Assembly: GCA_963514005.1 (NCBI GenBank)
Contig: OY740792.1
Span: 31,496,001-31,560,000 of the forward strand
From: Raja brachyura
Lineage: Eukaryota
Direction: 5' to 3'
DNA: 64,000 bases
Below the pieces are notes generated by a model. That model worked only from the letters and a program-made list of their open reading frames with translations, made no database searches and was not told the DNA's origin. Shown in pieces: positions 1,556-37,949 of this stretch (within the stretch, counting starts at the first letter, position 1; each line of letters begins with the position of its first letter). The position numbers and the translations under genes are program-made.

Positions 1556-2489
1556 CTGAACACTGGCATTCAGTCTGCTGATGCCTGCTGAACCTCCCGG
1601 TTGCTAACAATTTTAGCTCCCTTTCCCTATGCCATGGTGAGAGGTGTGTGGTGTATTTGAGTGTTACAGTCTGGGGATTGGGGTGTATCAGAGTGTTACA
1701 GTCTGGTGTTTGAGGTGATGGAGCGTTACAGTGAGAGGTGTGAGATGTATCTGAGTATTACAATGTGGGGTGTGGGGCGTATCAGTGTTACAATGATGAC
1801 CATGGGGTGTATCAGTTTTACAGTGAGGAGTGTGGGGTGTACCAGAGTTACAATGAGAGATGTACAGTATCCCTGGGTGTTACAGTCAGGGGTGTGGGAT
1901 GTGCTAGATCATTGCAGTGAGGGGGATGGAAAATATCTGAGTGTTGGTTGTGGTGAGAATAGTAAGATTAAATGAGAACGTACCAGTTTGAAGTTTGATC
2001 TTTATTTTATGAGGAGTTACGATGACCGATTACGTGAAGAAGGCCGTCAGCCGGCATGTGCGTCAATCTTCAAAGCAACGGTGTGAAATCACAGATAACA
2101 GTAGTTGAACGGAACATAGTAAGATTAGAGAAGAGTAAAACTACCAGATGACCTTTATGATACGAGGGTTGGGAGCAGAGGGCATGTAATCGCTCATCGT
2201 AACCCCTTATAAAATAAAGATCAAACTTCAAACTGGTAAGTTCTCATTTAACCTTACTATTTTACTTCGGAGTCATGTGAGTGACTACGTGAAGATTTCA
2301 AAGCTCTGTGATTTCATGCCGGAAACGAGTCCATGCGTCACACACTACATGGATTGACCATGGATGAGTGAAAAAGATTAATGCATTCAGACATGATTTA
2401 GTTTGTTAAAAATGCTGATGCTTTAATTATCAAAGTAGAATAATAATGACTCCTTTCATCCAGGGGGAAACTATAAAACAGAATCTAAA

Positions 2490-3443
2490 ATGGAGTTGGC
2501 AAATACCCCCGGTCTGGCAATGGGTTATTATAAAATGTTTGGAAAGTATGTTTGCTTGACCATCCTGCAGCTGCTAGGATGTGGTCCAGCGGAACATACA
2601 TAACCTTTGGAGCTGATGTGGTAGCAGCCCTGGTGGAGTGCGAGTTGAAAATATTAGTATTGACTCATGCATTAGCCAAAACCCCATTTTAACCACCTGG
2701 AGATGGTTTGAACTAATACCTTCTTATGAGTTTTTTTTGTAACTAACAAACATTGCTAGTTTGAAGCCTTTAAGGCTCTGGTGACCTTGACGTATTGTTG
2801 TAAATGTGTGATCACACATTACCAAAGGTCCATGGGGTATGCCATGAAAACTAGTTTGAGACCTGGTTAGTTCAGGTTAACTAGATCATAACATGAAATA
2901 TTATGCTATTTGCAGATGTAACCATCCTGTCCAGTCGCAATTTATGTGGTGACTGGACCCGTTGCACTGAGACCAGTGCCATGAGGATAACTATCTTATG
3001 AGAGCCGGCTAAAGATGAGGATGTAGCTGGAGCTCCCTGGTGAAGTAGTGTTAACATAACGTCAATATCCTATACTTCCATGTAACTGGACCTGGGCGAA
3101 CTTGTGTTAAAGATATCCTTTATAATTCTGGATATCAGAGGGTGAGACCCGACAGTGTGGGTCCCACTTGTTGCACAAATATGATGAGAAGACACGTTGG
3201 CACAGTTAATGGCACTATACCTTAATTATTGTCAAAGACCCACTTGAAAATGAACTCCAAGACGTCAGTTATCTGTGCTGTAACATGTAACATGTTATAT
3301 GTAACATGTGTATTTAAACAAATACGCTTCCCATATCCTGAAGAGGAAAGGTACTGCCTTTTTGGTGCTATCCCTGCTCTCTGCAGAGAGCACTTACATG
3401 GATCGGTCTGACAACCCGAGCCGCAGGAATAGTCGTCAGAGTC
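2490..3443 (-). pseudogene. Disrupted tyrosine recombinase of DIRS copy A
   Basis: Reverse strand near 2590-2655 encodes IFNSHSTRAATTSA, matching VFKSHSTRAASTSA of the intact YR. Stops and frameshifts are present. Confidence 0.8.
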
Positions 3444-3541
3444 TGCAAGTCAATGAATTGATTTATCATGCAGATGCTGGTTTCCCGAGTCACAAGCTGA
3501 ATAAGCAAAGTTTTATGTTTAGAATAACCATATAAGGTTCT

Positions 3542-6575: not shown

Positions 6576-8325
6576 GACTATACTGTCAGTGACTTGGGTG
6601 GCGAACCCGACGGCAGCCGGCTACCCGCACTTCTGTGGTCTCTGTAGCCGGTTCCCCATGGTCCCGGTTTCCGTGGTCTGAGACCGGGATTCCCCACGGT
6701 CCATAACCGGTTTCGCGGCCCGTCCGAACTTCGCCCCGAATTAGTCCAGCAGGAAAATCTCTGAAACAGAGGTTCCTGCAGAAAATAGAAAAAACAGAAC
6801 CTGGGAATAAGTTGAAAACTTACCTTCAGGTTTAAACTTACCGCTGGAAGGAGCAACGCGCCGGCCAGTCAGCCGTTGTGCAATGCGCTGGACGTAATGA
6901 CGCGCATGCGGGCTGACGGCCTTCTTCACGTAGTCACTCACGTGACTCCGAAGTAAAATAACAGTGTACAGTGAGGAGTGTGGGGTGGAATCAGTGTCAC
7001 TGTGGCCAGTGTGGATTTCATCAGAGAGCTACAGTGAGGGGCGTGGAGTATATTAGTGTTATAATGAGGGCTGCGGAGAATTGCAGCGGTGTTGTGAGGG
7101 TTGTGGAGGACCTCAGAGTGTTACAGTGAGCAGTGCAGTGTGAGCCTGTGTTACAATGAGGTGTGTAGAAATGTACAGTGGCTTGCAAAAGTTTTCATAC
7201 CCCTTGAACTTTTTCACATTTTGTCACGTCACAACCTCAAACGTAAATGTATTTTATTGGGATTTTATGTGATAGACCAACACAAAGTGGCGCATAATTG
7301 TGAAGTGGAAGGAAAATTATACATGGTTTTCAAATTTTTTTTACAAATAAAAAACTGAAAAGTGTGACGTGCAAAATCAGCCTCCTTTATTCTGGTACCC
7401 CTAAATAAAATCCAGTGCAACCAATTGCCTTCATAAGTCACCTAATTAGTAAATAGAGTCCCCTTGTGTGTAATCTAATCTCAGTATAAATACAGCTGTT
7501 CTGTGAAGGCCTCAGAGGTTTGTTAGAGAACATTTGTGAACAAACAGCATCATGAAGCCCAAGGAACACACCAGACAGGTCTGGGATAAAGTTGTGGAAA
7601 AGTTTAAAGCAGTGTTAGGTTATAAAAAAATATCCCAAGCTTTGAACATCTCATGGAGCACTGTTCAATCCATCATCTGAAAATGGAAAGAGTATGGTAC
7701 AACTGCAAACCTACCAAGACATGGCCGTCCACCTAAACTGACAGGCCGGGCAAGGAGAGCATTGATCAGAGAAGCAGTCAAGAGGCCCATTGTAACTCTG
7801 GAGGAGCTGCAGAGATCCATAGCTCAGGTGGGAGAATCTGTCCACAGGACAACTATTAGTCGTGCACTCCACAATTCGGGCATTTATGGAAGAGTGGCAA
7901 GAAGAAAGCCATTGTTGAAACAAAGCCATAAGAAGTCCCGTTTGCAGTTTGCCACAAGCCATGTGGGGGACACAGCAAACACGTGGAGGAAGGTGCTCTG
8001 GTCTGATGAGACCAAAATTGAAGTTTTTGGCCTAAATGCAAAACGCTATATGTGGCAGAAAACTAACACTGAACATCACCCTGAACACACCATCCCCACT
8101 GTGTTTAAACATGGTGATGGCAGCATCATGCTGTGGGGATGCTTTTCTTCAGCAGGGACAGGGAAGCTGGTCAGAGTTGATAGGAAGATGGATGGAGCCA
8201 AATACAGGGCAATCTTGGAAGAAAACCTGTTAAAGAAGGAACTGCAGATGCTGGAGAATCGAGGGTTACACAAAAAGCTGGAGAAACTCAGCGGGTGCAG
8301 CAGCATCTAAGGAGTGAAGGAGATA

Positions 8326-8360
8326 GGCGACGTTTCGGGTCGAGACCCTTCTTCAGACTG
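8326..8360 (-). ncRNA. Minimal type I hammerhead ribozyme motif of the Penelope pseudo-LTR
   Basis: Minus strand reads CAGU-CUGAAGA-A-GGGUC-UC-GACCC-GAAA-CGUC: the CUGANGA/GAAA core, stem II and a GUC site. Confidence 0.75.
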
Positions 8361-8602
8361 GTCAGGGATCAGGGAAACGAGAGATATAAACAGTGATATG
8401 GAGAGATAAAGCAAGAACAATGAGTGAAAGATATGCAAAAAAGTATTGGAGATAAGGAAAGCAGGCCATTGTAAGCTGTTTCTGGTGTGAAAATGAGAAG
8501 CTAGTGCAACTTGGGGGGGGGGGGGGGGGAGATGGAGAAGGAATGTCAGGGCCCGAGGGCTGAGGGAGAGGTGGGGGGGTGGGGGGAAAGGAGCAGTCTG
8601 GG

Positions 8603-9206
8603 TTAACAGAATTGAGAAAATTCAATGTTTAAGCCCAGAGGATGCAGACTCCCCAAGCGGAATATGAGATGTTGTTCCTCAAACTTGCGGTGTTGTTCAC
8701 TCTGGCCATGGAGGAGGCCCAGGACCGAGAGGTCGGATACGGAGTGGGAGGGGGAGTTGAAGTGCTGAGCCACCGGGAGGTCGGGTTGGTTATTGCGGAC
8801 CGAGCGGAGGTGTTCGGCGAAACGATCGCCTAGCCTCCGCTTGGTCTCACCGATGTAGATTAGCTGGCATCTGGAGCAACGGATGCAGTAGACGAGGTTG
8901 GAGGAGGTGCAGGTGAACCTCTGTCGGACTTGGAATGACTGCTTGGGTCCCTGAAAGGAGTGGATGGGGGAGGTGAAGGAACAAGTGTAGCATCTCTTGC
9001 GGTTGCAAGGGAAAGTGCCCGGGGAAGGAGTGGAGTAGGAGGGAAGGGAAGAATTGACGAGGGAGTTGCGGAGGGAGCGGTCTTTGCGGAAGGCAGATAG
9101 GGGGGGAGATGGGAAGATGTGGCGAGTGGAGGGGTCACGTTGGAGGTGGCGAAACTGGCGGAGGACTATCTGTTGTATGCGCTGGCTGGTGGGGTGAAAG
9201 GTGAGG
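8603..9206 (-). CDS. Penelope ORF C-terminus: Cys-rich linker plus GIY-YIG endonuclease (partial)
   Basis: PCNRKRCYTC...NLVYCIRCSRCQLIYIGETKRRLGDRFAEH...PVAQHF...GLN. The frame is open up to the 5' truncation point. Confidence 0.9.
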
Positions 9207-9861
9207 TTGGAAGAAAACCTGTTAGTCTGCAAAAGACTTGAGACTGGGGCAGAGGTTCCCCTTTCAGCAGGACAACGACCCTAAACATACAGCCAGAGCT
9301 ACAATGGAATGGTTTAGATCAAAGCATTTTCATGTGTTATAATGGCCCAGTCAAAGTCCAGACCTAAATCCAATTGAGAATCTCTGGCAATACTTGAAAA
9401 TTGCTGTTCAAAGATGCTCTCCATCCAATCTGACTGAGCTTGAGCTATTTTGCAAAGAAGAATGGGCAAAAATTTCAGTCTCTAGATGTGCAATGCTGTT
9501 AGAGACATATCCCAAAAGACTTGCAACTGTAATTGCAGCGAAAGGTGGATCTACAAAGTATTGACTCGGGGGGGCTGAATACTTTTGTACGCCACACTTT
9601 TCAGTTTTTTATTTATAATAAAATTTGGAAACCATGTATCATTTTCCTTCCACTTCACAATTATATGCCACTTTGTGTTGGTCTATCACATAAAATCCCA
9701 ATAAAATACATTTACGTTTGTGGTTGTAATGTGACAAAATGTGGAAAAGTACAAGGGGTATGAAACCTTTGCAAGCCACTGTATATCAGGGTGTAATGCT
9801 GAGGGTTGTTATGTTTATCTGCGTTACAATGAGAGGTTTGGTGTATCCAAGCCTTATAGGC

Positions 9862-11997: not shown

Positions 11998-14754
11998 CTG
12001 CTGCTCTATTTTATGTTACAAGTGTTGGAATTTAGCCAAAAATTTGCTCTATGCACAAATTATAATTGAAGTCAATTTGCAGGGGGGTTGTGCATACAGG
12101 CAGGCAGTGGGGTATTCACAGGTTGACCCAGAGGACAAGGAAGTGGGCACAAGGTTGGAGCAATTCCCTGAGGGAGTCTGTTGATCTAATGATACTCGGC
12201 ATTTTCTGCAAAAACACTTTTGATTGAGTGAAGCTTTATTTGCCGACAATGTCATGGAGATGAAAATTCAAATTGCATAAATTTTTCTACATCTTTTCCA
12301 CGCATTTACTCCTCTTATTTTTTAACCTTTCACACATAGCAAATCTCTTTCTTTTACAACACCCCTCATTTAAGAACGGCTGTTTATGAAATGTTATTTT
12401 GAAGTGATGGGATATTTCTGACAGGGAATAGAAGGCACACTACAATATCCCAAAGCTACATCAGAAAATCAAAGCAATGTCAACAGAGTGTCTGCCGTGC
12501 ATCACTGTTGCTGCAAGGGTTTTAATTTTGCTTTGCCTTTCAGTCATGTACAAACTACTAAGCAGGCATTCCATCAGAGTGCCAGCATTCATCATGCATT
12601 TGAATATTGTAAGTCTGGCTTCTGTAAACGATATAAGGAATAAATATAATTAATATGTTCATTTGAAATATGAGAAATTGCTTCATTACACATCTGAAGC
12701 ATTCACTTTATTCCAGGCATCAAACTAAAACATACCACACGATATGCTTGTTAGTGATTCCAACCTGCATGTGATGCACAGTTTCCTGTGTTCTGATATA
12801 AACAGATAAAGAAATATGTACCACAGGGGATTTTTTTTAAAATGAAGACAAATCCTTTTGATTCTGCACTTGGTGCATTTTATCACGAGGATTGTAATGC
12901 TTGTCCAGACCTGGGAAATATATCACTATCTTTGCTGATAATGTGACTTTTCACGAGTCAAAAACACTCCATTCAACTGAGATTTGGGACAGAATGAAGC
13001 AGTATAGAAATAGCTGCTTATTAATTCTACAGCTGGAAAACTCTTGACATCAGTCAAATTTAGCTTAACCTTTATCTGCACTGAAGGAAAATGAGCAGAA
13101 ACTTAGTTCTTCCCATTTTACTGAAGGATTTTTGGAGGCAGTGTTTCACAAAACATAGATGCCAGAAATATATCCAATCCCAATTGGAGTCAGGCATTTT
13201 TCTGACGCCTGTGTGCCAGGTTCATGTAGGCCAAGGGTCTTTTTCCTGGAACATGGATTATCCTGAATAAAGTCCACTTGTGCTTGTTCTCCTGATGAGC
13301 CCCTGCCATCGAGGTGACCAAACTAAAGATTCCCTGAAGAGCCATGGTGGTTCCCGTCTGTTCATTATTGCTGGTTTACCGGTGGGAAAAGGAGGCACAA
13401 CTGAATACTATGCCGGCTTAAGGTGTCTCCTGGATGTTGACTCCAATGAATCTGATCAGTCGGAGACCAAGTTCCAATAACTCCACAACCCACCAAAGAC
13501 CGGCACAAGAGAAATCTCACCCCACCCCACAACTATGGCTGGTGAGTTCATCCCCAATGTACAGGAATAAAAGCAGCGGAAACCCAACTCAAATATAGAT
13601 TCCACTTCCTGTTTCTGACCAAAATGGCTGGCCTTTTATATGTCTCACAGGGAGGACTATGGATCAAATTAAATGGTTTATTCTAAGAAGGTTGAGATTT
13701 GGGTTGGAATTCTCCAGTCAGTGGCCATTGTTAAACTGTGAGTGGAAACTAGGATTGGTCCCAGCCAAGGATTTTCCATTGGAATTGTCGGAATTGATCA
13801 TAACTCCGCAGACAACTGTGGTCTGATCCTTGAGTATTTCTGGTATTTTTGTTTTTTATTTTACAGTACTTAGCTTCCACTTAAATACGAGCTGGAATTT
13901 TCTACTAGAATGTTAGAATATTTGTTCTGAATAACACAACACATTATGCTAAGATTTATGTTTTAAAATATAAATATGTTGGATTGCTTATGTTAGACTA
14001 AATGGGTCATTTAGTTACCCACCAGACAGTGTTATTGGGAATCTGATGTTAAACTTCAGGAAGCTAGTTATCACAATCAAGGATATGTCACAAGTAAATA
14101 TGTAGGTTTCAGATTATAAGACATGTAAATGATTGAAAGAAATTGTTCCTGATAAAGTAACTTTGGATAAGCCAAACCTGACATATTGTGTACTGGAGTT
14201 TTGGAACACAGACCCAGCAGCATAAAAATAGATGAATATTTCTTTCTGCGGCATCTGAAATGCTGATGATGGTAAATTTAGCCAGGCCTCTGATGCAGAG
14301 ATTGAACACTTAGAATATCTTTCCAATGAAATGAATTGTCCAAACTGCATTTGAATAAATTCCACTCAAGTAGAATACTGTCACTTTTAAACAAGTGCCA
14401 ATTTGTGTAATTTCCACTCCAACTGATGTTTTTCTTCTATTTGATTCTGTATTGTGCACTTCCTAATTTAAGCAGTGGGCGTAGAATCTGAAGTGTGGCA
14501 GAGAATATCTGAAAAGGCATAAAATTATGCTGGTACTAGGTCTGTGAAGCTGAATATTCATGTGGCAATGGTCATAATCATGTACTTATTCACTGCAAAG
14601 CCAACCTGTCAGCAGAGAGCATGGAAGTCTGATCTAAGTCAAGCATGGTAATTTGACAAATATGTGACAGGAAGAACTCGAATGTGAGGTTACCTTTCCC
14701 ATGGCATTTTGACAGGCTGTGGTTCTCTATGCCAAACAATTGAATTCCAGGATA

Positions 14755-15357
14755 TCTCAAATATACGTCCTATCGAAAAGACAGACAGGTGAGCAGAGGG
14801 GGTGAGGTAGTTTTGTTGGTAAGGAATGAAATTCAGTCCATTGCGAGGGGTGACATAGAATCAGGAGATGTGGAGTCAGTATGGACAAAACTGAAGAATT
14901 GTAAGGGTAAAAAGACCATAATGGGACTTATCTACAGCCCCCCAAAGAGTAGCCTGGATATAGGGTGCAAGTTGAATCAAGAGTTAAAATTAGCATGTTG
15001 CAAAGGTAATGCTACGGCCGTTATAAGAGATTTCAACATGCAGGTAGACTGGGAAAATCAGGTTAGTACTGGCCCCCTATCAAGGGAGTTGGTGGAGTGC
15101 CTCCATGATGGATTCTTAGAGCAGCTTGTATTGTAGCCTACCAGGGAGAAGGCAATTCTGGATTTAGTGTTGTGTAATGAACCGGATTTGATAAGGGAAC
15201 TCAAGGTAAAGGAGCCATTAGGAGGTAGTGACCATAATATGATGAGTTTTAATCTACAATTTGAGAGGAAGAAGGGAAAATTGGAAGTGTCAGTATTACA
15301 GTTGAGCAAAGGAGACTATGGAACCATGAGGGAGGAGCTGGCCAAAGTTGAGTGGAA
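14755..15357 (+). pseudogene. CR1 ORF2 apurinic-endonuclease fragment (copy 1)
   Basis: Motifs RGGEVVLLV, IYSPP, DFN, ILDLVLCN and LGGSDHN. In-frame stop. Confidence 0.85.
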
Positions 15358-15701
15358 AGAGTTTGTGTCTTCACCCTCAGGAAGGCTGATCTAACTTCTG
15401 CAACCCTGGGAAAAGGCACACTCAAGTCTGATGGGATGGATGCCCCATTGTTCTTGAAAGAGAGCAAAGCACTTAGAATACATAGAAAGAAGCACGAAAA
15501 GAGGACCTACACAGTTTCCAGTGTAAATAGACTCAATTGAACTCTGCTGTGGACAATTAACTGGATAGCTTCCACAGAAGGGCTTTGGTCTTAAAGGCAC
15601 ATTCCCCATAGCAGACAGACTGCAGCAATCACATGACCTCCATGGAGGGGCGAGAGGCGAGAGGAGAGAGGCGAGAGGCTCTGGGGATATGAAGAGACTT
15701 A

Positions 15702-16452
15702 TGCCCCTGTCCCACTTAGGAAACCTGAATGGAAACCTCTGGTGACCTTGCGCCCCACCCAAGGTTTCCATGAGGTTCCCGGAGGTTCTGGTCACTCTCC
15801 CTAATGGTCGAAAGTGGTTACCGCATGGTTCTTCTATGTTCCTTCAATTATTTCAATGGCTGTTTGGTTGAACCCGGTGGAGTGGGGTCGCTATTTACTT
15901 ACAGGCAGTCGAAGGCAATCTCCTTCCCTGACCGGCCATTTTGATTGGCTCATTGGAGTTTTCAGGACCTAGAAGATCCGCCGGAAGGTAAAATGCCCGC
16001 TAAACTTGATTAAACTTCTTAAAACTGTCTCCACTNNNNNNNNNNNNNNNNNNNNNNNNNNNNNNNNNNNNNNNNNNNNNNNNNNNNNNNNNNNNNNNNN
16101 NNNNNNNNNNNNNNNNNNNNNNNNNNNNNNNNNNNNNNNNNNNNNNNNNNNNNNNNNNNNNNNNNNNNNNACTTACCGTGTTCTGTAGCAGCTGTTTCCC
16201 TTCCTCTTCATCGCGCAGACAGCGCTCCATCGCTGTCCCTGGCCCCCACCATCGCGATGTGTTTGTGTGTGTGTGTGTGTGTGCGGTCGGTAGCAAAGAT
16301 CCTGTAGGATCTTTGGTCAGTAGTTGCAGCTCACGCTTCGGTCGAGGCTTTCCAGGCGAGTAACCAAAACCTCTGCCGACTCATGGAAACATTGGGTGGG
16401 GCGCAAGGTCACCAGAGGTTTCTGTTCAGGTTTCCTAAGTGAGACAGGGGCA
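15702..16452. mobile_element. PIF/Harbinger-type MITE (duplication copy 1; contains the gap)
   Basis: TIR TGCCCCTGTCCCACTTAGGAAACCTGAA with TTA TSD on both sides. Confidence 0.85.
16036..16170. other. Assembly gap (N run) at a CT-rich tract
   Basis: N run. The paralogous position 17996-18149 is CT-rich low-complexity sequence. Confidence 0.99.
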
Positions 16453-16693
16453 TTACAGTGCTTACATTGAGTACATGGCCTGATACCATTGAACAAAATA
16501 TTGGTGAGCCCACAGTTGGAGTACTTATTCACTGCAAAGCCAACCTGTGAGCAGAGAGCATGGAAGTCCGATCTAAGTCAAGCATGGTAATTTGACAAAT
16601 ATGTGACAGGAAGAACTCGAATGTGAGGTTACCTTTCCCATGGCATTTTGACAGGCTGTGGTTCTCTATGCCAAACAATTGAATTCCAGGATA

Positions 16694-17296
16694 TCTCAAA
16701 TATACGTCCTATCGAAAAGACAGACAGGTGAGCAGAGGGGGTGAGGTAGTTTTGTTGGTAAGGAATGAAATTCAGTCCATTGCGAGGGGTGACATAGAAT
16801 CAGGAGATGTGGAGTCAGTATGGACAAAACTGAAGAATTGTAAGGGTAAAAAGACCATAATGGGACTTATCTACAGCCCCCCAAAGAGTAGCCTGGATAT
16901 AGGGTGCAAGTTGAATCAAGAGTTAAAATTAGCATGTTGCAAAGGTAATGCTACGACCGTTATAAGAGATTTCAACATGCAGGTAGACTGGGAAAATCAG
17001 GTTAGTACTGGCCCCCTATCAAGGGAGTTGGTGGAGTGCCTCCATGATGGATTCTTAGAGCAGCTTGTATTGTAGCCTACCAGGGAGAAGGCAATTCTGG
17101 ATTTAGTGTTGTGTAATGAACCGGATTTGATAAGGGAACTCAAGGTAAAGGAGCCATTAGGAGGTAGTGACCATAATATGATGAGTTTTAATCTACAATT
17201 TGAGAGGAAGAAGGGAAAATTGGAAGTGTCAGTATTACAGTTGAGCAAAGGAGACTATGGAACCATGAGGGAGGAGCTGGCCAAAGTTGAGTGGAA
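16694..17296 (+). pseudogene. CR1 ORF2 endonuclease fragment (copy 2)
   Basis: Duplicate of 14755-15357. Confidence 0.85.
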
Positions 17297-17661
17297 AGAG
17301 TTTGTGTCTTCACCCTCAGGAAGGCTGATCTAACTTCTGCAATCCTGGGAAAAGGCACACTCAAGTCTGATGGGATGGATGCCCCATTGTTCTTGAAAGA
17401 GAGCAAAGCACTTAGAATACATAGAAAGAAGCACAAAAAGAGGACCTACACAGTTTCCAGTGTAAATAGACTCAATTGAACTCTGCTGTGGACAATTAAC
17501 TGGATAGCTTCCACAGAAGGGCTTTGGTCTTTAAGGCACATTCCCCATAGCAGACAGACTGCAGCAATCACATGACCTCCATGGAGGGGCGAGAGGCGAG
17601 AGGCGAGAGGCGAGAGGCGAGAGGCGAGAGGCGAGAGGCTCTGGGGATATGAAGAGACTTA

Positions 17662-18428
17662 TGCCCCTGTCCCACTTAGGAAACCTGAATGGAAACCTCT
17701 GGTGACCTTGCGCCCCACCCAAGGTTTCCATGAGGTTCCCGGAGGTTCTGGTCACTCTCCCTAATGGTCGAAAGTGGTTACCACATGGTTCTTCTATGTT
17801 CCTTCAATTATTTCAATGGCTGTTTGGTTGAACCCGGTGGAGTGGGGTCGCTATTTACTTACAGGCAGTCGAAGGCAATCTCCTTCCCTGACCGGCCATT
17901 TTGATTGGCTCATTGGAGTTTTCAGGACCTAGAAGATCCGCCGGAAGGTAAAATGCCCGCTAAACTTGATTAAACTTCTTAAAACTGTCTCCACTCCTTC
18001 TACCCCCCTTCTCCCCTTCTCCCCCTTCTCTCCCCCCTTCTCTCTCCCCTTCTCTCTCCCCTTCTCTCTCCCGGTCTCACTCTCCTTCTCACTCTCCTTC
18101 TCTCCCCTTCTTTCCCCTTCTCTCCCTCCCTCCCGCGCTCTCTAAAGGACTTACCGTGTTCTGTAGCAGCTGTTTCCCTTCCTCTTCATCGCGCAGACAG
18201 CGCTCCATCGCTGTCCCTGGCCCCCACCATCGCGATGTGTTTGTGTGTGTGTGTGTGTGCGGTCGGTAGCAAAGATCCTGTAGGATCTTTGGTCAGTAGT
18301 TGCAGCTCACGCTTCGGTCGAGGCTTTCCAGGCGAGTAACCAAAACCTCTGCCGACTCGTGGAAACATTGGGTGGGGCGCAAGGTCACCAGAGGTTTCTG
18401 TTCAGGTTTCCTAAGTGAGACAGGGGCA
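17662..18428. mobile_element. PIF/Harbinger-type MITE (duplication copy 2)
   Basis: Same TIRs and TTA TSD as 15702-16452. Confidence 0.88.
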
Positions 18429-18542
18429 TTACAGTGCTTACATTGAGTACATGGCCTGATACCATTGAACAAAACATTGGTGAGCCCACAGTTGGAGTAC
18501 TGCGTGCATAGTTGGAGTACTGGGTGTAAAAAAGATCCTTAA

Positions 18543-18868: not shown

Positions 18869-20630
18869 TAATAATATTGCTAACACTGGAGGCCTTGTGT
18901 TACAAGGAGAGAGCGGATAAATTGGGACTAGTTTGCCTGGAGTGAAGGAAGCTGAGGTGTGACCTGAGAGTTTTGTAAAATTATGAGGGGCATAGTTTGG
19001 GTAGAGATTCAGAGTCTTTATACCATGGTAGGAGAGTGGAAAACAAAACAACCAATGCTTATCCTTTTCTGGTGTAAACCTTTCCATTTTGGTTTCATTC
19101 ACATCCGAACGATTCAACAGATTTTGCCCCCTTGTCCATCTAAGTGGCAACATCCTCATCATAATGCCGCTACTTCATGTCCTTATTCAGGATTTGTTCA
19201 GAAGGTGGATGCAAGGATCTGGATTTGGACATCTCGATGTATGTCCTGAGCCACTTCAGATTCCCCGGTCCTGAAGGAATCCCACAGTCAGTTTCAGTGC
19301 CAGGTTTCAGTGCATTATTGTTCCCTACAAATGATCATGGTGTAACGTGACCCAGGATAAGCACCAATATTCTCCTCCCTTTAAGCACCAGGTCCATGCA
19401 GAACAAACAACACCCACCCATAGAAATCCCAGAAAAACAATTGTGTGGGATTGGAATCCAAAGCCTTATGAGTCAAAGATAGTTCAGAAGGTACAGTGAC
19501 AATCAAAACTGGCCTTCCAGTTTTGTTTTTATACAAACCTCCTCAAATATAACACTCCAACTTCTAAAAAGATGGTGATCAGTGTGAAGTCACCATGTGT
19601 TTATCTATATAAGGTTAGGATAGGGCATAGTTAAGATCTGAAAACCTATTTGGTAGAACTGCCATAATTATACTCACGGAGTACACGTTGTGAGCAATCT
19701 CTCAATGTTTAAAGTTGTGTTTTTGGTTTAAAGCTGTGTTTTTCTTTTAAACCGTATCAGCATTGCAATCTTGAAAGAGGTATCTTACCAGGAACATCCG
19801 AAATTATATTATCTACCAGCATAGTCGTGACTCCTGTGGCACATTGTGAGATGGGCTTGGGTAGATAAGTGCTGAGATAAGGTTCCTAATATCAGGTCTT
19901 GTCTCTCCAAGATAAGGGATTCTGCAGCAAGCTGGTCCAACTGCTGAACTATCAAGGTCAGGTGATTTGGCAAGGACCGGGATTGTTTCCAGCAAGTATG
20001 GAGCCTGGAACCAGGTGCACTAGCAGGGTCAGTTACTAGAGGTCACTTCTGGGATAAGTGCCAGTCATTCCCAACTCTTCCCAAGATGGATGGTAACAAC
20101 ATCATGTATTTCTGCAACCTTCAGACTGAGGAAGTGACAGTAAATAGTCCTTCCCTGGAGCAAACTCAAAGGCACATTGAGTCAGTCCTTGAGCAAAACA
20201 GGAGGGGAAAAATGGTGGAAAAATAGGAAATCATGGACATAGGACTAGAGATGAGCGTACGATGGAGGTGACATAAGTGTACAAAGGAGGAATGAAGCGG
20301 GGGTTGATTGGGGAGGTGGGAGGTGGTGGGGAAAATTAGTGTTCACCAGGGTAAGGGAGAAAGAAAAAAGGGAAGGGGACAAGAAATGGGCATTAATTGA
20401 TATTGGAGAATAGTAAGATTGAACGAGAACTTACCAGTTCGAAGGTTGATCTTTATTTTATGAGGAGTCGAAGTGAGGGATTTCGTGAAGAGCTCGCCGG
20501 CGCGCATGCTCGACATACTTCAAAGTAGCGGCGTGGAATCACAGAACCAACAATAGAAATGACTTTGCATAGTATGATTGAATTGACTAAGATTACCAGA
20601 TGAAGGTGATTGAGGGTTGGGCGAGGAGGG

Positions 20631-20743
20631 CACGAAATCCCTCACTTCGACTCCTCATAAAATAAAGATCAACCTTCGAACTGGTAAGTTTTCGTTCAAT
20701 CTTACTATTTCATTTCGGAGTCACGTGAGTGACTTCGTGAAGA
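20631..20743. promoter_or_regulatory. DIRS internal complementary region (circle-junction template)
   Basis: 20631-20709 is the reverse complement of 20409-20487 (one mismatch seen). 20708-20743 is the reverse complement of the 5' terminus at ~25688-25723. Confidence 0.93.
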
Positions 20744-20885
20744 CTTCAAAGCTTCTGTGATTACACGCCCTGGACCACGTCCATGCTGACACACCACTAC
20801 CAGGGATGGATGGGAGGAACAAACTTGCTCAATAGTTCATACTGCAAAACAAGAGCATATTTATTAATAACAAATCAAAAACCCC

Positions 20886-21965
20886 TCATGCGGGGACATC
20901 TCCACGTTCTTGACCTGCATTCAGCACGGCTTCTGCGAACTGTAGAGGAGCAGCAACAGGCTTGTTATAAAAACGCTGGAACACAGCTTCATTCGCCCAT
21001 CCTGCTGTGGCGAGAATTTGGTCCATGGGCACCTCCATGACCCTCGCCGCTGACGTCGATGCAGCCCTGGTGGAATGAGACTTGAACACATTAGTGTCGA
21101 TACCTGACTTACCCAAGACGACTCGAAGCCACCTGGATATCGTCTGGACTGTCACTCGATGATGAGGTCTCTTATGAGTGACAAGCAGGTATCTCTCCAT
21201 TCCTCTGATGCGTGCCGTCACCTTGACATAGTGGCGGATATGTGAGGCTAAACATAGCCTAGCATCTGCGGGGTATGCCGGGAACTTCAGCTGCAGCCCT
21301 GTGCACCCAGGTCTATGCTGCTTTAGTAGCTCGTCAATGAAAAAGACTACTTCTGTAGGGGTAGCTGTCATTCTGTCGACACGATGTTTGTGTAGTGTCT
21401 GTACCCTCTGAGCTGAAGTCAGCGCTAGTAACATCACCAGCTTCATGGTGAGTTGGTCCAGTTGGAGCCCTTCCATGGGAGACCACGTCCTGAGCAGGGT
21501 TAATACGTCCCTGACATCCCAGGTGATATTATAGCGTGGTGTAGGCGGATTCATATTGAATATACCCCGCATGAGTCTGGACACTAGCCTGTTGGATCCT
21601 ACCCCAATCTTGAGGTAGAATGATAGCGCACTTCTGGCGCTGTTGATGGCACTGTAACTTAAGTGTTCATCATGGTGCAACCCCGCGAGGAATTCCAGGA
21701 CGTCGGTTATTGTCACGTCATCGTACGTGATGCGAGAGCGGCTGCAGTAGGCTTCCCACTTCTTAATATGCGAGCGGTATCTTCGCCTTGTGGACTCTCG
21801 ACACGACGCCCCGATGGTATCCATGGTCCGAGCCGAGAGGCCGTATTGGACTAACGGCCTGTTCAGAACCTGCAAGCCAACAAATTTAAATAGCCATGGC
21901 AGGGATGTGGCTCCCCTGAGACAGGGTGAGTAACCAATTGTGGGCAACCCTTCAAAAGGACCCAA
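20886..21965 (-). CDS. DIRS tyrosine recombinase (true start uncertain)
   Basis: N-terminal SAM-like region (YRSHIKKW, SYSAINSARSALS). Catalytic R (SAQR), K (LLKQ), HSTR, GW and FY are all present. Confidence 0.95.
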   Translation of the reverse strand: MGPFEGLPTIGYSPCLRGATSLPWLFKFVGLQVLNRPLVQYGLSARTMDTIGASCRESTRRRYRSHIKKWEAYCSRSRITYDDVTITDVLEFLAGLHHDEHLSYSAINSARSALSFYLKIGVGSNRLVSRLMRGIFNMNPPTPRYNITWDVRDVLTLLRTWSPMEGLQLDQLTMKLVMLLALTSAQRVQTLHKHRVDRMTATPTEVVFFIDELLKQHRPGCTGLQLKFPAYPADARLCLASHIRHYVKVTARIRGMERYLLVTHKRPHHRVTVQTISRWLRVVLGKSGIDTNVFKSHSTRAASTSAARVMEVPMDQILATAGWANEAVFQRFYNKPVAAPLQFAEAVLNAGQERGDVPA

Positions 21966-23872
21966 GGTTCGTTGAGCATGTCAAAGACCACCGGATACCA
22001 AGGCTGTGTGGGCCAGTCGGGTATAATAAGGATGCCCTTGGCAGCATCTGCCTGAATCTTTCGCAATACCCGACTGATGAGGCAAAACGGAGGGAAGGCA
22101 TAGAAAAACCAATTCCCCCAGTCCAGCGAGAATGCATCTAGCGCTATTGCCCCAGGATCTGGTTCCCATGAAACGTAGGCTGGTACCTGATGGTTTAACC
22201 GTGACGCAAAAAGGTCAATGTCCGGTTTACCAAATTTGGCTGTGACTTTAGAAAAAATCTCAGGATGCAACATCCATTCAATGTTGTCATTAAATTTGCG
22301 TGACCTGGTGTCCGCCACAGTATTAAGCTCACCTGGCAAATAGGTAGCTGAAATCCAAATGTCTCTTTGAACACACCAGAGCCAAATTGAATTAGCCAAT
22401 TTGTCACACGAAACTGACCTGGTACCACCCATATGGTTTAAATATGCCACAGCTGTGGTGTTGTCTATTTGGAGACGGACGTGTGCTCCAACAAGCTTGG
22501 AACAATATGCACGAAGTCCGTGGAATGCTGCCAGCAACTCCAAATAGTTAATCCCTTGAGTCAACAACATCGATGCCTCAAGGGTGTCCCATCTGCCCCC
22601 ACAACTAGAGCAATTATCAGTAGCTCCCCAGCCATTGGAGCTTGCGTCAGTCTGTAAATATACCACCGGATTAGCCTCCCTAACAGGCTTAAATGAGTTG
22701 CTAATGTGACACACCCACCATTGCAACTCAGTTATCGCTTCGGACGGCAGCTGCATTGATCGATCATAATGACCAGCGTTCCGTTTTAACGCAGTAATTT
22801 TAGCTCTTTGCAAATTCTGATAATGCAAAGGTCCATATCGTGCTGCCGGAAACAAAGCCACTAGCTTGCCAATTACTGTGGCTGTATGCCGAATCGATGG
22901 TATATTGGTGCCAATTACATCTCTGCACACCTGAGTGACTTCCTCAATTTTGTTAATTGGTATAGTTATCCTCATGCTCATTGAGTTCACCGTGAACCCT
23001 AGATAATTAATTACCTGGGCAGGGCAGAACTTCGATTTCTCTGGATGGACAATGAACCCTAATTGTTGAAATATATTGACAGCAGCTGCAACACCCTGTT
23101 CAGCCAATTGCAGGGTGTGGCCCACAATAAAGACATCATCTAAATAGGCCATAACTATATGATGTCGTTGTCTCAAATAAGCCATGATTGGCTTCACCAA
23201 TTTAATGAACAATCTAGGGGCTGTAGTGAGCCCATTAGGCAAAGCCTTATACTGCCAAAGCTGCCCCATCCAGATAAATTTCAGAAACCTTCTATCATAT
23301 TTCTGGATGGATACTGAATAATATGCATCCCTTAAATCAATGCATGCCATAAAGCAGCCATGAGAAATCAATGATTTGGCTGTTTCAAACGTATCCATTT
23401 TAAAATGAGTATATGTTACAAACGTATTCAAACGGGTTAGATCAATAATGACACGACAGCCTCCATCCTTCTTAGGTCTAGTAAATATGTTCGAAACAAA
23501 TTCAATTGGCTCATGCACCGTTTTCTCAATCACACCCTTCTGTTCCAGACTTAAAATTTCCTTATAACCTGCTGCCTGTTCTGCAGCAGACAATTTGAAC
23601 GTACGACCAGGCATGTGCTGGGATGGAGGAATGTCGCCATTAATAAACTCAATTTTATGCCCCTGAATATTCCGCAACACATACTCATCACCAGTAAAAT
23701 TACCCCATGCACCCAAAAACAACCGTAAACGACCACCAACATGGGAAGTTAAACAGAGAGAAAAAAGAGAACCAGACCCCCTCACCTCCGTGGTTACCGG
23801 CGGTCCTTGACACGTGTGGGTGGCCGTGGAGGTGCTGGGTTGGCTTGAGGGCGCGGCGTCTTCGATTTCCAC
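21863..23872 (-). CDS. DIRS pol: reverse transcriptase + RNase H + adenine-methyltransferase-like domain (true start uncertain)
   Basis: RT motifs KKDGGCRVIIDL, IDLRDAYY, LPNGL and YLDD. RNase H motifs TDAS, LELLA, IDN and ADTRS. C-terminal DLFAS...DAF...YAFPPF...PDWPTQPW. Confidence 0.96.
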   Translation of the reverse strand: MEIEDAAPSSQPSTSTATHTCQGPPVTTEVRGSGSLFSLCLTSHVGGRLRLFLGAWGNFTGDEYVLRNIQGHKIEFINGDIPPSQHMPGRTFKLSAAEQAAGYKEILSLEQKGVIEKTVHEPIEFVSNIFTRPKKDGGCRVIIDLTRLNTFVTYTHFKMDTFETAKSLISHGCFMACIDLRDAYYSVSIQKYDRRFLKFIWMGQLWQYKALPNGLTTAPRLFIKLVKPIMAYLRQRHHIVMAYLDDVFIVGHTLQLAEQGVAAAVNIFQQLGFIVHPEKSKFCPAQVINYLGFTVNSMSMRITIPINKIEEVTQVCRDVIGTNIPSIRHTATVIGKLVALFPAARYGPLHYQNLQRAKITALKRNAGHYDRSMQLPSEAITELQWWVCHISNSFKPVREANPVVYLQTDASSNGWGATDNCSSCGGRWDTLEASMLLTQGINYLELLAAFHGLRAYCSKLVGAHVRLQIDNTTAVAYLNHMGGTRSVSCDKLANSIWLWCVQRDIWISATYLPGELNTVADTRSRKFNDNIEWMLHPEIFSKVTAKFGKPDIDLFASRLNHQVPAYVSWEPDPGAIALDAFSLDWGNWFFYAFPPFCLISRVLRKIQADAAKGILIIPDWPTQPWYPVVFDMLNEPWVLLKGCPQLVTHPVSGEPHPCHGYLNLLACRF

Positions 23873-25545
23873 AAAGGTCTCTGCCGACCCTGTCCTAAAA
23901 AAGACCCTTGGTGCTGGTTCTGGTGCTGTTGTCGTTGTGGAGCTAGAGGGTGAGTCCTCGTCGAGGCACTGGCCGACCCTCGTGAGCGAATGTATGGAGC
24001 TTTTGAGCCTGACGGTGTGGGGGCACTCTGAGAGCGCATGATCCCCACCGTTTTGGCTTGTTCGTCAAGCTCTTTGACTCTCTTCGAGAGGTCCTCACCA
24101 AAGAGCTGACGGGGCGGCGGCGGTGGTTTGCACAATCCTGCAAACTTCAGGTTGAGTGCTGGGCGGATGCTGTTTTTGCGAAACCCGTTGATTTCGTGCT
24201 GGGTCGCGCACAATAAGGCCAGAGCATCTTCCTGGTCCAAATTTAGTTCGTCCCCGTCCACCGACCGCGCAAAGGCGGTAATACCGGCCGTGAGGAGTTT
24301 CAGGATCCGCTGCAATTTTAGCTCTTGTTGACGGATAGCCGCACTGATGTTGCCCCATATTGGCGCATTGACCACAGGCACGTTGAGGGAGTTGCAGTTT
24401 GATGGAGCCTTGTGACGGCTCATAGCCTGGATGAGGACTTCTTCCTGCAGCACCTGATTATTAAGAAAGTCCACTGTGGCTGCCAGCTTTGTATTGAGAG
24501 GAAGACCAGCCGTATGTGGGGCCGCGAATTTGGTCGCCACATCCAAGAGTTCCTCCGCTGGCACCTCCAACGGAGGTGGTACGGGATCCACCAGAACCTC
24601 CTCCTCCTGCTGCTCCAGGCTGATAGTAGATGTTGGTGAAGACGCCCTGTGCCTGTTGCTGCCCTGCTGTTGTTGATGTTGAAGCAGGAGCTCCAGCAGC
24701 CGCTCCATACGGTCAATACGCCCTTCACCCTGAACACTCAGGTGGTCGGAGTCCTCCGGCTCTGAAAAGAAAACCGGGCTCCTGTCATCGGCCCGCACCT
24801 CGTCGAGGCCCTGCCGGTGCCGGTAGTTGTCGCTAACAGCCGCCGAGGCGAAACTGCGCGATTCCTGCGCGGGCGTGTTCAACCGCCTCCGTTTAGCGGG
24901 AGCTGAAGTCGCTGCCACTAAGGGCACTTGCGGTGAGGTGTCGGCACCAGCCGAAGCATGGCTGCCTGGGGCCCGCGCAGTCTTGCCGGCTGCCCACATC
25001 GTGGACGTTGCCGACGCATGGTCTCGCCCACCCATCCATGGGGGGCTCGGCGACCGTGACGAGACCCGACTCGACCGACCCGTCCCGGCGTCGAGAGTCG
25101 GGGTGTGCCGGCTGGACTTCACAGCCGCCCCGGGTCTCGCCCTGGAACCTGACCGCTCTTCCGCGATAGGCAATGCCTTAGCCCTAACAGGGTTAGGCTT
25201 CTGGGCTCCTGCCCTCCCCCTTCTCGGAGGGCTGAGTGGAACAGGCCGTGCCACGGCACGTGCCCTGCTCGAGGTCGCCAGCGAGCCCGCTGACGACCTG
25301 ACTGCCATGGCAGGGTCCCCCTGCTCTGGCGGCACACCACACTCCTCCTCGTCGAACTCCTCCGAGCTGTGGTGTGCTGGCGGATCTGGACCTGTGAACA
25401 CAGGGCTTACCCACATCTCCGCCTGAGTCCCGGCCTGCGCTGCAGGTACTGCCGATGGTAAAGGCCCCGGAACTGTTGACCGGCGAACTCGTCCTGACGT
25501 CCTCCGGCCCTTCGAACTCCCATCCATGTCCTTGCTGCAAGACAT
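23794..25545 (-). CDS. DIRS ORF1 (gag-like); the ATG at 25527 is an alternative start
   Basis: 583-aa ORF in the ORF1 position. Low-complexity N-terminus, with conserved VPVVNAPIW and LFGEDL motifs shared with copies B and C. Confidence 0.88.
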   Translation of the reverse strand: MSCSKDMDGSSKGRRTSGRVRRSTVPGPLPSAVPAAQAGTQAEMWVSPVFTGPDPPAHHSSEEFDEEECGVPPEQGDPAMAVRSSAGSLATSSRARAVARPVPLSPPRRGRAGAQKPNPVRAKALPIAEERSGSRARPGAAVKSSRHTPTLDAGTGRSSRVSSRSPSPPWMGGRDHASATSTMWAAGKTARAPGSHASAGADTSPQVPLVAATSAPAKRRRLNTPAQESRSFASAAVSDNYRHRQGLDEVRADDRSPVFFSEPEDSDHLSVQGEGRIDRMERLLELLLQHQQQQGSNRHRASSPTSTISLEQQEEEVLVDPVPPPLEVPAEELLDVATKFAAPHTAGLPLNTKLAATVDFLNNQVLQEEVLIQAMSRHKAPSNCNSLNVPVVNAPIWGNISAAIRQQELKLQRILKLLTAGITAFARSVDGDELNLDQEDALALLCATQHEINGFRKNSIRPALNLKFAGLCKPPPPPRQLFGEDLSKRVKELDEQAKTVGIMRSQSAPTPSGSKAPYIRSRGSASASTRTHPLAPQRQQHQNQHQGSFLGQGRQRPLWKSKTPRPQANPAPPRPPTRVKDRR

Positions 25546-25959
25546 AATCAGACAACAAGGACCACCAACTAAAGGTAGAATACTTACCTCCGTGGCCCCT
25601 TATGAAGGGCTGACGAGGAGCGCGCTCCACCGCCAGCCGTCGCAGCAACGCGTTACGACGATATGTCGAGCATGCGTGCCGGCGGGCTCTTCACGAAGTC
25701 ACTCACGTGACTCCGAAATGAAATTGAATTTTGTAGCTACAGTTCAGTTGTAAACGACCCAAGTGGAATAAGTAAGTATTTGAATAGGTCAAACATTGCC
25801 CATGTAATGGTGTGATCTTCAAGATATTTCAAGCAGGTTCCTCTTTATTAATAAACCTTCAATGTTGGAGCCCCATTAACTGCAAATAACACATTGGTCA
25901 CTGTTCCTCACTGCTATGATTTTATAGAGTTTCTGTAAATAAACTGATACAGATTTTTG

Positions 25960-34676: not shown

Positions 34677-36708
34677 GGGTTTAGGAGCAGGATTCCTAAA
34701 TTGCGATTGGATTCCTTCAACCTGTACGAAAATGCTGAGGTTATGAAATAGATTATTGCTGGGATCTTCCCTGATTGGCATCTGTAAATTCAATGGCTAG
34801 GAACCTCCCAGAAACCAGCGATCTGTCCATCAATGTTACTTTTTAAGAAACATTCAGTGCTTGAAATGGAAATGTGAGGAGGGGAGGAATTAAGAATCAT
34901 TATATATCCTGCTTAACCCGCTTGAATAATATTTCTAATTACGGGTCTGAAAGATGGTGGCTCCTTATGCCCTCCTCAGGTCCTGCAATCAGAAGGACCC
35001 AAATCCCAAAAGTCATGTGGGTTGGTGGGTTAATTGGCTGCAATAAATAACCTCTCATGCAGGTGTGTGATGCAATCCATGGAAAGTTGGTGGGAATCTG
35101 GTGACATGATCTAACTTCTGGGGATAACATATACATTAAGTTGTCTTGTAAGCAAACTGTTGTGAAGCTGCAGTATGCTCTTTCACTGAGATGTAGCTTG
35201 ATGGTCTTGCTCTTACTGCCTTGGTGGGTCTTGGTAAATCCCTTTTAGATTCTTGGTGGGTCTTACTCTTACTTGGGCAGCAATGTTTCTGCGTTCAAGA
35301 TCCTGGCTAATGCTCCAGCAAAGTGCATAGGGAAGAGGTGCACAATCAGATTCGCTGCTTCTCACATGCATACATTGCAAGAGGAGGCCATTTAGCCCAT
35401 CCATTTAATGCTGGCTCCTTCTAGGCCAAACCCATCAGCACCAATTCCCCCTCTCTTTCCCCACAGCTTATAAAATGATTATTTCTCAAGCACCTCGGGG
35501 TATGCATGAATAGTTGCTAGATGATCAGCAGGGAGTCGATGGGCGAAGTGCCTGTTTCAGTGCTGTATGACCAGTAAGTTTACCCACACAACTTACTTTT
35601 GACAATCCTGATTGTGATGGACGTTTCACCATCCAGGGGTATTAAAAGTTGGAACGGATTCAAAGATAAGCAGAAATGGTCTTTTCAACATCCTGCCAAT
35701 ATTTATCCTTCAGCAGAATCTCTGATCCCTAAGCAAATCACAGCCTACAAACTGACTGTTATATTCCCCTCACTACAAAGGTAATAACATCTGAAAAATT
35801 CTTCCCTGAGTGAGAGAGTTAGTGCCTTTCTTTCCTTTTTTTAATTTAAAAATATACATTTTATCTGGACATCTGGAAATAGTTATTTCATGGCTAATCC
35901 ATTAACTCAGAATTCAATCTTTTAATATTTTGCATGAATCCCTGGAGACAGCTGCACAGAGAGTGGATGGATTGGTGATAATATTCCAACACGACAGGGA
36001 TGCTGCAGGAATATTATGACTGTGAAATGCAGTGGGAAATTATTCAAAAGCAAACCTGGAAGCTGCTGCTTTGCGGGGGCGAGAGGCTGTGGACCAAGTA
36101 TGGTGGAAGGGGCAAGGAGGTCGGGAGGAGAGGGCTCACAAGCCCCTCGAGGGGCAGCCTTTGGTCTCACAGCTCACACCAGCAGCAAGTCAAGTGCGGC
36201 AGCCTCATCGCCCACACATGTCTCCGATTCTTGCCAGCAGACATCCTTCGTGCTTGCAGGACTTGATACTCCACAGAAGGCAGCACACAAAATGGCAGCA
36301 GGTTACGAGTTTATATCCCATTTTGGGGCAATTATTTTCAAAAATAAACTTTATTCAGAATTTAAAAAATCTATCTACCTTCTATCTATACTATTACTGA
36401 AACTCTCATCTTGATCACTTCCGGTCTGCGTTGTTTTTAAATTTACGGAAAAATGGTAACCTATATTGCTAGGATTTTCTCCTCTGCTCCAAGCCACCAG
36501 GTTTTGTTCTGCTCAGTGGAATATTAGAAAAGTTATAAATGTTTAAAAAATCGGAGATCAGCAGATTGGTCTTCTCGCCTGTCAATCACCATGAAGGTAA
36601 CACACCTTCGGGGGGCAAGGAGAATAAAGCCTCGGAGGCCAGGCATGAGTCAGTCAGCCCGGAAGCCATGAGTGGAGTTGAGTCCAGAACTGTGAGTCTA
36701 CAAGCCAT

Positions 36709-36835
36709 GCTGAGTCCGCAAGTCGCGCTGAGTCCGTAAGTCGCGCTGAGTCCGTAAGTCGCGCTGAGTCCGGAACTCGCGCTGAGTCCGGAAGTCGCGC
36801 TGAGTCCGGAAGTCGCGCTTGAATCCGGAAGTCGA
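36709..36835. repeat. 18-bp minisatellite (GCTGAGTCCGKAAGTCGC), about 7 copies
   Basis: Direct tandem units visible. Confidence 0.9.
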
Positions 36836-36839
36836 GCCC

Positions 36840-37294
36840 GAGTCCAGAGGTCCACAAGCTGTGAGGGCGTGAACTATGAGTCCACAAACCGTGCGTGACT
36901 GAACTGTGAGTCCATAAGCCATGAGCGACTGAACTTTGAGTCCACAATCTGTGAGTGACTGAACTGTAAGTCCACAAGTCGTGAGCGACTGAACTCTGAG
37001 TCCACAAGCCATGAGTGACTGAACTGTGAGTCCACAAGCCATGAATGAGTGAACTGTGAGTCCGCAAGCCGTGAGTGAGTGGACTGTAAGTCCACAAGCC
37101 ATGAGTGAGTGAACTGTGAGAGCACAAGCCGTGAATGAGTGAACTGTGAGTCCACAAGCCGTGGCTGAGTGAACTGTGAGTCCACTAGCCGTGGCTGAGT
37201 GAACTGTGACTCCACAAGCCGTGGCTGAGTGAACTGTGAGTCCACAAGCTGTGGCTGAGTGAACTGTGAGTCCGCAAGCCATAAGTGAGTGAAC
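36840..37294. repeat. 30-bp minisatellite (GAACTGTGAGTCCACAAGCCRTGRSTGAST), about 14-15 copies
   Basis: 30-bp periodicity with no unique spacers. Confidence 0.93.
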
Positions 37295-37949
37295 CCCCGC
37301 CCACACACCCCCATCCTCCTCCCCTCGCACACTCGCCCAGAGGCAGGCCACGGCAGTGGTAGGCCACGGCAGCGCTCCCCCACCACCGGCCCCCGCCTGA
37401 AGCCGTCCCCTCCCCAGCTACAGAACACTCCTGCCAGCCCCCACCTGAAGCCTCCCTGTCCCCAGCTGCAGACTAGCCCAAGAATCCATTCAGCCCACAA
37501 TGTCCATATTATCCCTCTGGAAACAGCCCACAACATGCATACTAACCTTCCAGAAAGCCCCCCATTGACCACCACCAGAAGCCTCCCCCTCCCCAGCTGC
37601 AGGACACTCCCCCCTGCTCCACCGGCCCCCAACAGCCCCGCCAGAAGCCATGCCCCTCCCCAGGCTGCAGGATGCAACAAGAAATGCAACAAGAAAGAAT
37701 GGACTGAATAAATCTCTTCTTTAACATTTAAATTGTTGTTGTATTTTAAGAGTTATTCACATTTTAAGCTTTAATAAATCCCTTTTCCACTTGCCGTGCC
37801 CGTCAGCTGCACCTGCGCAGTAATACCTGCGTGTTCTACGTCACAATGGGAACTAAATGGGAGGGAATGGCTGTGTCACCGGAGAGCCGCTATAAGTGGA
37901 TGGGGTGGGGGGGAGGGATGGAGTGAGTGCATGGGGGGAGGGGGGAAGA

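Follow-up and report, generated by a model that had tools for sequence, protein, structure and literature searches.

The stretch analyzed here, which we call the window, comprises 64,000 nucleotides of Raja brachyura (assembly GCA_963514005.1, contig OY740792.1, positions 31,496,001 to 31,560,000) and carries on its minus strand, from 25724 to 20409, a DIRS1-like retrotransposon of 5.3 kb. This intact copy holds three frames: open reading frame 1 (ORF1, or gag), then pol, which lies in the -1 frame, and finally that of a tyrosine recombinase (YR), itself -1 relative to pol. A decayed relative, copy C, lies in the same window. According to our in silico analysis, a heptamer near the end of gag is very likely a programmed -1 ribosomal frameshift site, and a predicted splice just past the gag stop would route its output to one of two enzymes. 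The features concerned are the following (slashes mark splice junctions).

20409 to 25724, minus strand: full-length DIRS1-like retrotransposon with three open frames and ATT...ATT ends (self-BLAST, termini, open reading frames).
25535 to 25587, minus strand: putative leader intron of 53 nt, GAG/GTAAGT ... TTGCAG, 5' of the gag ATG (sequence; copy C has a 57-nt counterpart).
23794 to 25527, minus strand: ORF1/gag, 577 amino acids, from MDGSSK to TAA (open reading frame; the homologue P0004 shares the start methionine).
23896 to 23902, minus strand: slippery heptamer U_UUU_UUA, predicted -1 frameshift site (sequence, phase, relatives).
23874 to 23891, minus strand: weak 6-bp hairpin 4 nt past the heptamer, possible stimulator (folding).
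23786 to 23896, minus strand: 37-codon linker in the -1 frame, without AUG, common to the predicted Gag-Pol and Gag-YR (frames).
21870 to 23785, minus strand: predicted 1916-nt intron, GAG/GTGAGG ... TTGCAG/GTT, phase 0 at both ends, removing the reverse transcriptase (RT), ribonuclease H (RNase H) and methyltransferase (sequence).
21863 to 23896, minus strand: pol in the -1 frame with RT (YLDD), RNase H-like and Dam-like methyltransferase parts, 677 codons past the shift (Pfam, motifs).
21884 to 21890, minus strand: U_UUA_AAU within the pol/YR overlap, in phase, confined to this copy (sequence; not conserved).
20886 to 21869, minus strand: tyrosine recombinase exon, 327 amino acids when read from the predicted acceptor; its earliest AUG is at 21824 (Pfam Phage_int_SAM_4 5.8e-07, Phage_integrase 5.5e-04).
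55799 to 55805, minus strand: identical heptamer in the decayed copy C (sequence).
55683 to 55694, minus strand: ATG GAG/GTAAGT of copy C, a phase-0 donor past the former gag stop (sequence).

The gag product has no Pfam match; 1397 relatives of it were found, and the closest named Gags come from the skate Rhinoraja longicauda (46-53% identity), in keeping with a cartilaginous fish host. A further in-frame ATG at 25545 falls inside the putative leader intron. The RT of pol is recognized by Pfam (RVT_1, 3.7e-19) and the RNase H by its motif and homologues, with no Pfam match. At the end of pol, the methyltransferase assignment relies on a Dam hit (PF05869, E 0.0042) that stays under the curated cut-off, and on several homologues that carry PF05869 or PF12237.

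The initial annotation had pointed to TTTTTTA in both copies, and we found it in each of them, at 23902-23896 in the intact copy (TCT TTT TTA GGA) and at 55805-55799 in copy C (CCT TTT TTA GGC). Within the 601 codons of the intact copy's gag frame, it is the only in-phase X_XXY_YYZ (Y being A or U, Z any base but G). The -1 frame is free of stops from there onward, as had also been claimed: in the intact copy the open stretch covers 677 codons and ends at the pol stop, and in copy C it covers 111 codons, past the RT start motif VGGRL, up to a decay stop at 55472. The latter is further damaged by a premature gag stop 7 codons past the heptamer and by deletion of most of pol and the YR. In the intact copy no pol-frame AUG precedes the RT start motif, the first being at 23614. 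The window contains 18 TTTTTTA per strand, so the heptamer in two copies proves little by itself; the excess over chance comes from the relatives, in which 35 of 39 families have the run in phase against 1 to 4 of 36-37 in gag control windows. Among the differences listed between contigs and window (40 of 768; contigs of four out of 7 sequencing runs), none touches the heptamer, which is no evidence either way. Two nt past the gag stop, the linker reads ACG at 23791 in the intact copy and ATG in copy C (55694); elements like copy C could also re-initiate translation at this ATG.

The relatives were taken from a pol alignment of the 80 best among 476 confirmed loci from metagenomes plus one distant locus of a viral collection. 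Eight loci without a pol N-terminus were dropped, leaving 73 loci and the two window copies, which cluster by RT identity into 47 families at 90%, 36 at 70% and 14 at 60%. From the 47 families, we set aside 6 whose gag and pol share a frame and 2 that are too short upstream, and tested the remaining 39. A run of six U or six A lies in the phase of a -1 slip in 35/39 families (28/30 at 70% clustering), compared with 8 and 2 for the two remaining phases. Gag control windows of equal size gave 1-4 families per phase; a single control window in RT gave 12/41 in phase 0, with 0 and 3 for the other two. The general X_XXY_YYZ pattern behaves alike, with 36/40 in phase and 11 and 6 in the control phases.

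Counting two loci that are short upstream, 37 heptamer sites were available, namely 28 U_UUU_UUA, 4 U_UUU_UUG and 5 A_AAA_AAC. On the question whether Phe-Leu is always TTT-TTA across subfamilies, this coding holds at 28/37 sites and gives way at the others to U_UUU_UUG or to A_AAA_AAC, which encodes Lys-Asn. From the site to VGGRL the pol frame is open in 36/37 and the third frame in 0/37, and a pol-frame stop lies within 0-25 codons upstream of the heptamer in 33 of those sites. No pol-frame ATG precedes VGGRL at 16/37 sites, the other 21 having one somewhere. On the RT tree of all 47 families, A_AAA_AAC needs 4 changes, at least 2 of them forced by starred branches, and one sister pair holds one U-type and one A_AAA_AAC heptamer. 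Remnants of old Phe/Leu codons stand just 5' of the new A_AAA_AAC in L009, L022 and L049, as turnover of the heptamer would leave them.

Five fused elements (L037, L059, L062, L075, L078) form a starred clade with gag and pol in a single frame, and they have no in-phase slip site. All five carry tandem donors instead, phase 1 then phase 0, placed 5-8 nt apart. When joined to the acceptor, the phase-1 donor leads to a stop within 0-1 codons, and the phase-0 donor opens 392-398 YR codons. The predicted products would be Gag from the phase-1 donor, Gag-YR from the phase-0 donor and Gag-Pol from unspliced RNA; the clade is one evolutionary event, yet it is predicted to make the same three products without frameshifting. 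A sixth fused locus, L072, is nested among frameshifting families and has a run of seven U, one base longer, which joins gag and pol in the DNA. Phase-specific conservation, swaps to another canonical heptamer, the 15/37 sites without a following AG and absence from the fused clade together make it very likely that ribosomes shift at the heptamer by -1, from gag into pol.

A hairpin AGGGUC/GACCUU had been described as following the heptamer. It is present in the intact copy, but it is weak (-8.7 kcal/mol, z -1.5, equaled by 15 of 200 shuffles). Across the families, folding is strongest just 3' of the site, with a mean z of -1.15 against -0.13 and -0.21 (paired p 0.026 and 0.0006); these scores cover stem-loops, not pseudoknots, and the families are related.

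The predicted intron starts 8 nt past the gag stop in the intact copy. We called donors upstream of the RT start when 7 or more of the 9 consensus positions matched. Such donors have phase 0 relative to the pol frame in 42/47 families, against 9 and 1 in the other phases and 0-3 in five control windows; in 27 of the 28 families with a long gag frame, their distance to the gag stop is -4 to 41 nt. The portion of PMC1854916 available to us gives 50-55 nt past the stop as the distance that escapes nonsense-mediated decay. A donor placed no more than 41 nt away would fit such an escape.

Acceptors occur in two main places, either after PPF of pol or just before the YR core. An AG follows PPF in 25/38 families, and from it the YR frame runs open over some 70 codons in every one of the 25. 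In the 13 families without this AG the YR frame is closed in 9; 6 of these 9, the window included, show TGCAG immediately 5' of the YR core. The TAG of the acceptor doubles, in 12/34 families, as the stop that opens the YR frame. Two Diadema RefSeq models, which fuse the linker (..ALPKE) directly to the YR start with the RT skipped, agree with such a splice. The putative U2-type intron 23785-21870 thus has a conserved GT donor and YAG acceptor that are compatible in phase, with weaker evidence for the acceptor than for the donor, and we consider this splice likely. The joints 23786-21869 and 25588-23894 are not among the 15 of 48 joints listed from the contigs of the four runs, which again speaks neither way.

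Our explanation is that one slip site would serve two enzymes. The majority of ribosomes would terminate at the gag TAA and release Gag (577 aa), while a minority would slip after Phe-Leu and enter the 37-codon linker. On unspliced RNA, the linker would continue into RT, RNase H and methyltransferase, giving a Gag-Pol of 1221 aa; on RNA spliced from 23785 to 21870, it would continue in frame into the recombinase, giving a Gag-YR of 908 aa. Both enzymes would thereby be made at a low ratio and tethered to Gag. Since the donor lies 3' of the gag stop and the linker has no AUG in this copy, the YR would be reachable on spliced RNA only by slipping. The product set of Gag, Gag-Pol and Gag-YR, which the initial annotation had listed among several outcomes, agrees with the sequence (donor phase, YR-frame acceptors, tandem donors). 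We put the probability of the whole explanation, one slip site with its output routed by a splice just past the gag stop, at roughly 0.75. Gag-YR is probably the main form of the recombinase.

Several observations weigh against this explanation. Four of the 39 families lack an in-phase U6 or A6, L001 having G_GGA_AAC and L035, L041 and L073 having shortened or displaced runs that are apparently decayed; L024, one of the 35, has a stop after the heptamer. The families are not independent, as the 14 clusters at 60% RT identity indicate. The folding signal is uneven: beside the modest z of the window hairpin, copy C has no hairpin (z 0.24), z falls below -2 in only 10/37 families, and the same stretch is also richer in G+C. 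On the splicing side, a loose acceptor scan is unspecific (34/39 in phase, 13 and 23 in the control phases), and the window's own acceptor is poor in pyrimidines and falls below the pyrimidine cut-off of that scan. The two Diadema RefSeq models may be ab initio. A bias toward AGY serine codons (25/26 against a 25% background) does not count as independent evidence because Cys TGY and Ser AGY are one base apart. The intact copy also has its in-phase U_UUA_AAU before the YR and an AUG in good context at 21824. Finally, we infer the slipping, the splicing and the products from sequence, frames, phases and conservation.

These last two signals of the intact copy lead to an alternative in which pol is made by frameshifting and the YR without Gag or without the splice, either through another -1 slip where pol and YR overlap, giving Gag-Pol-YR, or from its own AUG on leader-spliced RNA. 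The YR frame being -1 to pol, the U_UUA_AAU at 21890-21884 and the ACCAUGG start at 21824 would suit it, and RT-to-YR frameshifting was proposed for Ngaro by Poulter and Butler, as quoted in the part of PMC13003380 available to us. A second conserved slip site before the YR was looked for in 39 families and not found: canonical in-phase heptamers occur in the overlap of 7/39, against 15 and 6 in the control phases. An own AUG is hard to reconcile with the 15/39 families that have no ATG before the YR core. Either version also leaves the phase-0 donor (42/47) and the tandem donors of the fused clade unexplained, and we regard this alternative as unlikely. The initial annotation had itself offered another, that the heptamer bases form a splice acceptor (CTTTTTTAG/G) for the leader donor at 25587, so that gag is skipped and free Pol or free YR is made. 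The leader donor is indeed present, an AG follows in both window copies and at 22/28 U_UUU_UUA sites, and an ATG is found in the copy C linker and before VGGRL in 21/37 families. This acceptor was not borne out. The AG is absent at 15/37 sites, including all A_AAA_AAC and U_UUU_UUG, and codon phase is irrelevant to acceptors, yet the phase is strict. The 40 nt upstream contain four AGs, compared with one for each of the other two acceptors, and the leader donor already has a nearby acceptor at 25535. On the gag-skipped RNA, five out-of-frame AUGs would precede the first pol-frame AUG (23614), which itself lies beyond the conserved RT start. We therefore hold gag skipping at the heptamer to be very improbable.

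Two further explanations concern the run of U itself. If PFLG were a Gag peptide motif under selection at the protein level, the U run would be a by-product; FL is found in 100/112 Gag tails, mostly as PFLG (P before in 77, G after in 86). Synonymous codons would then be expected to be tolerated, yet the codons at the site are always T TTT TT[AG], a coding that Phe-Leu has elsewhere in only 6/146 cases. The peptide moreover becomes K-N where the heptamer is A_AAA_AAC, and the fused clade has no FL there, which leaves this idea hardly credible. The residue before FL is K, E, Q, M or W in 1/100 against a 24% background, a weak test because Pro dominates that position. A frame change by transcriptional slippage on the homopolymer, rather than by the ribosome, would agree with the common variants all being six-base U or A runs and with L072, whose frames are fused in the DNA by one additional base. 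Slippage of this kind would be indifferent to codon phase; the runs nevertheless finish in the phase of a -1 slip in 35 families, compared with 8 and 2 for the other phases. A run of six bases is also short for polymerase slippage, and we consider this mechanism very doubtful. Programmed -1 frameshifting at the heptamer, combined with the downstream splice, is the reading we retain.

The element shares its gag, RT/RNase H/methyltransferase and YR frames, its inverted termini, its internal complementary regions (ICRs) with a 3-bp junction and its ATT ends with the DIRS1-like elements described in PMC3266345, PMC7192593 and PMC9210276. The portions of these papers available to us describe overlapping ORFs, and we found in them no translation route for pol or YR; the word frameshift is absent from those portions or means decay, and element-borne splicing was not found there. 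The site resembles that of HIV-1 gag-pol, with U_UUU_UUA in equal phase near the end of gag and pol in -1; U_UUU_UUA is the HIV-1 slippery heptamer, and both it and A_AAA_AAC are named as shift sites in the accessible text of PMC5009743, where we found no mention of DIRS. Unlike HIV-1, the DIRS element has no protease or integrase, and its stimulator is weak or variable. One predicted shift would also feed two enzymes, with the selection made by a splice located downstream of the gag stop, whereas spliced retroviral RNAs skip gag.

Within the DIRS order, programmed frameshifting was suggested for Ngaro (Poulter and Butler 2015, as quoted in the portion of PMC13003380 at hand). That proposal concerns the pol/YR overlap, whereas the conserved site found here is in gag/pol and none is conserved in the pol/YR overlap. 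Plant Ty1/Copia elements make a spliced Gag RNA (PMC5580714, available sections), through which splicing determines how much structural relative to catalytic protein is made, a plan closest to that of the fused DIRS clade. In those sections, Copia splicing and premature termination yield Gag only; the splice predicted for DIRS would cut out pol and join the YR instead, in addition to a frameshift. Our searches of the open-access literature found no description of a gag/pol slip site of DIRS1-like elements, and the accessible parts of PMC6681497, PMC4495291, bioRxiv 2021.01.25.428050, PMC12440569, PMC3783388 and PMC2685390 yielded none; an earlier mention by Goodwin and Poulter is possible. Overall, a known family carries a -1 frameshift signal under strong conservation, and a likely splice would let one shift serve two enzymes. 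We lean toward regarding this arrangement in the animal DIRS1-like group as a two-stage recoding switch new to retroelements: one -1 frameshift in gag would feed RT or YR, an intron that skips pol and has its donor no more than 41 nt from the gag stop would decide between them, and the YR would be delivered as a Gag fusion. One clade would have swapped the frameshift for two donors 5-8 nt apart, with the same three proteins.

The termini and internal regions of the element are as follows.

25662 to 25724, minus strand: left terminus with the left inverted terminal repeat (ITR) (sequence comparison).
20409 to 20517, minus strand: right terminus, ITR plus an extension complementary to the right ICR (sequence comparison).
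20631 to 20743, minus strand: ICR, whose left and right parts overlap in AAT at 20709-20707.

The stretch 25714-25662 is 89% inverse to 20464-20517, and 25724-25688 is 100% inverse to the left ICR; at the other end, 20409-20487 is 98.7% inverse to 20631-20709. The inverted termini, two ICRs with a 3-bp junction overlap and NTT ends correspond to the DIRS1-like definition in the available text of PMC3266345, as does the gene order from a gag-like ORF through RT and RNase H to the tyrosine recombinase.

Putative GT-AG leader introns of 53-57 nt before the gag ATG recur in the DIRS 5' ends of the window (25587-25535, copy C near 57540-57483, near 3670, 4228 and 6850-6780) and are exceptionally short by vertebrate standards; in copy C and in the copy at 4228, TACTAAC directly follows the donor. 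More decayed DIRS1-like pieces of other subfamilies lie at 1955-3411, 3538-5800, 6870-6960 and 54676-57662, and comprise a YR with 3' end, two nested 5' ends and copy C with its internal deletion. In copy C and its relative, gag is lengthened in its N-terminal part by tandem repeats of 86-87 nt (56760-57350; 4600-5060). Elsewhere in the window, 36675-37752 holds 18-nt and 30-nt repeat arrays with open frames on both strands, 14582-18501 is a tandem duplication (98-100% identical, period about 1.95 kb), and at 7188-9770 inverted repeats of 166 nt spaced 2.25 kb apart flank ORFs, a unit that resembles a Tc1-type DNA transposon.

DIRS1-like elements are widespread in animals, and the literature, in the portions available to us, does not account for the translation of their overlapping and often AUG-less pol and YR frames. 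A defined slip site and an intron predict Gag-Pol and Gag-YR as the real proteins, which gene callers miss. A recombinase tethered to Gag, if true, would argue for particle-based replication. The family supplies many natural frameshift signals with repeated turnover of the heptamer, and the fused clade would be a natural case in which frameshifting was exchanged for alternative splicing.

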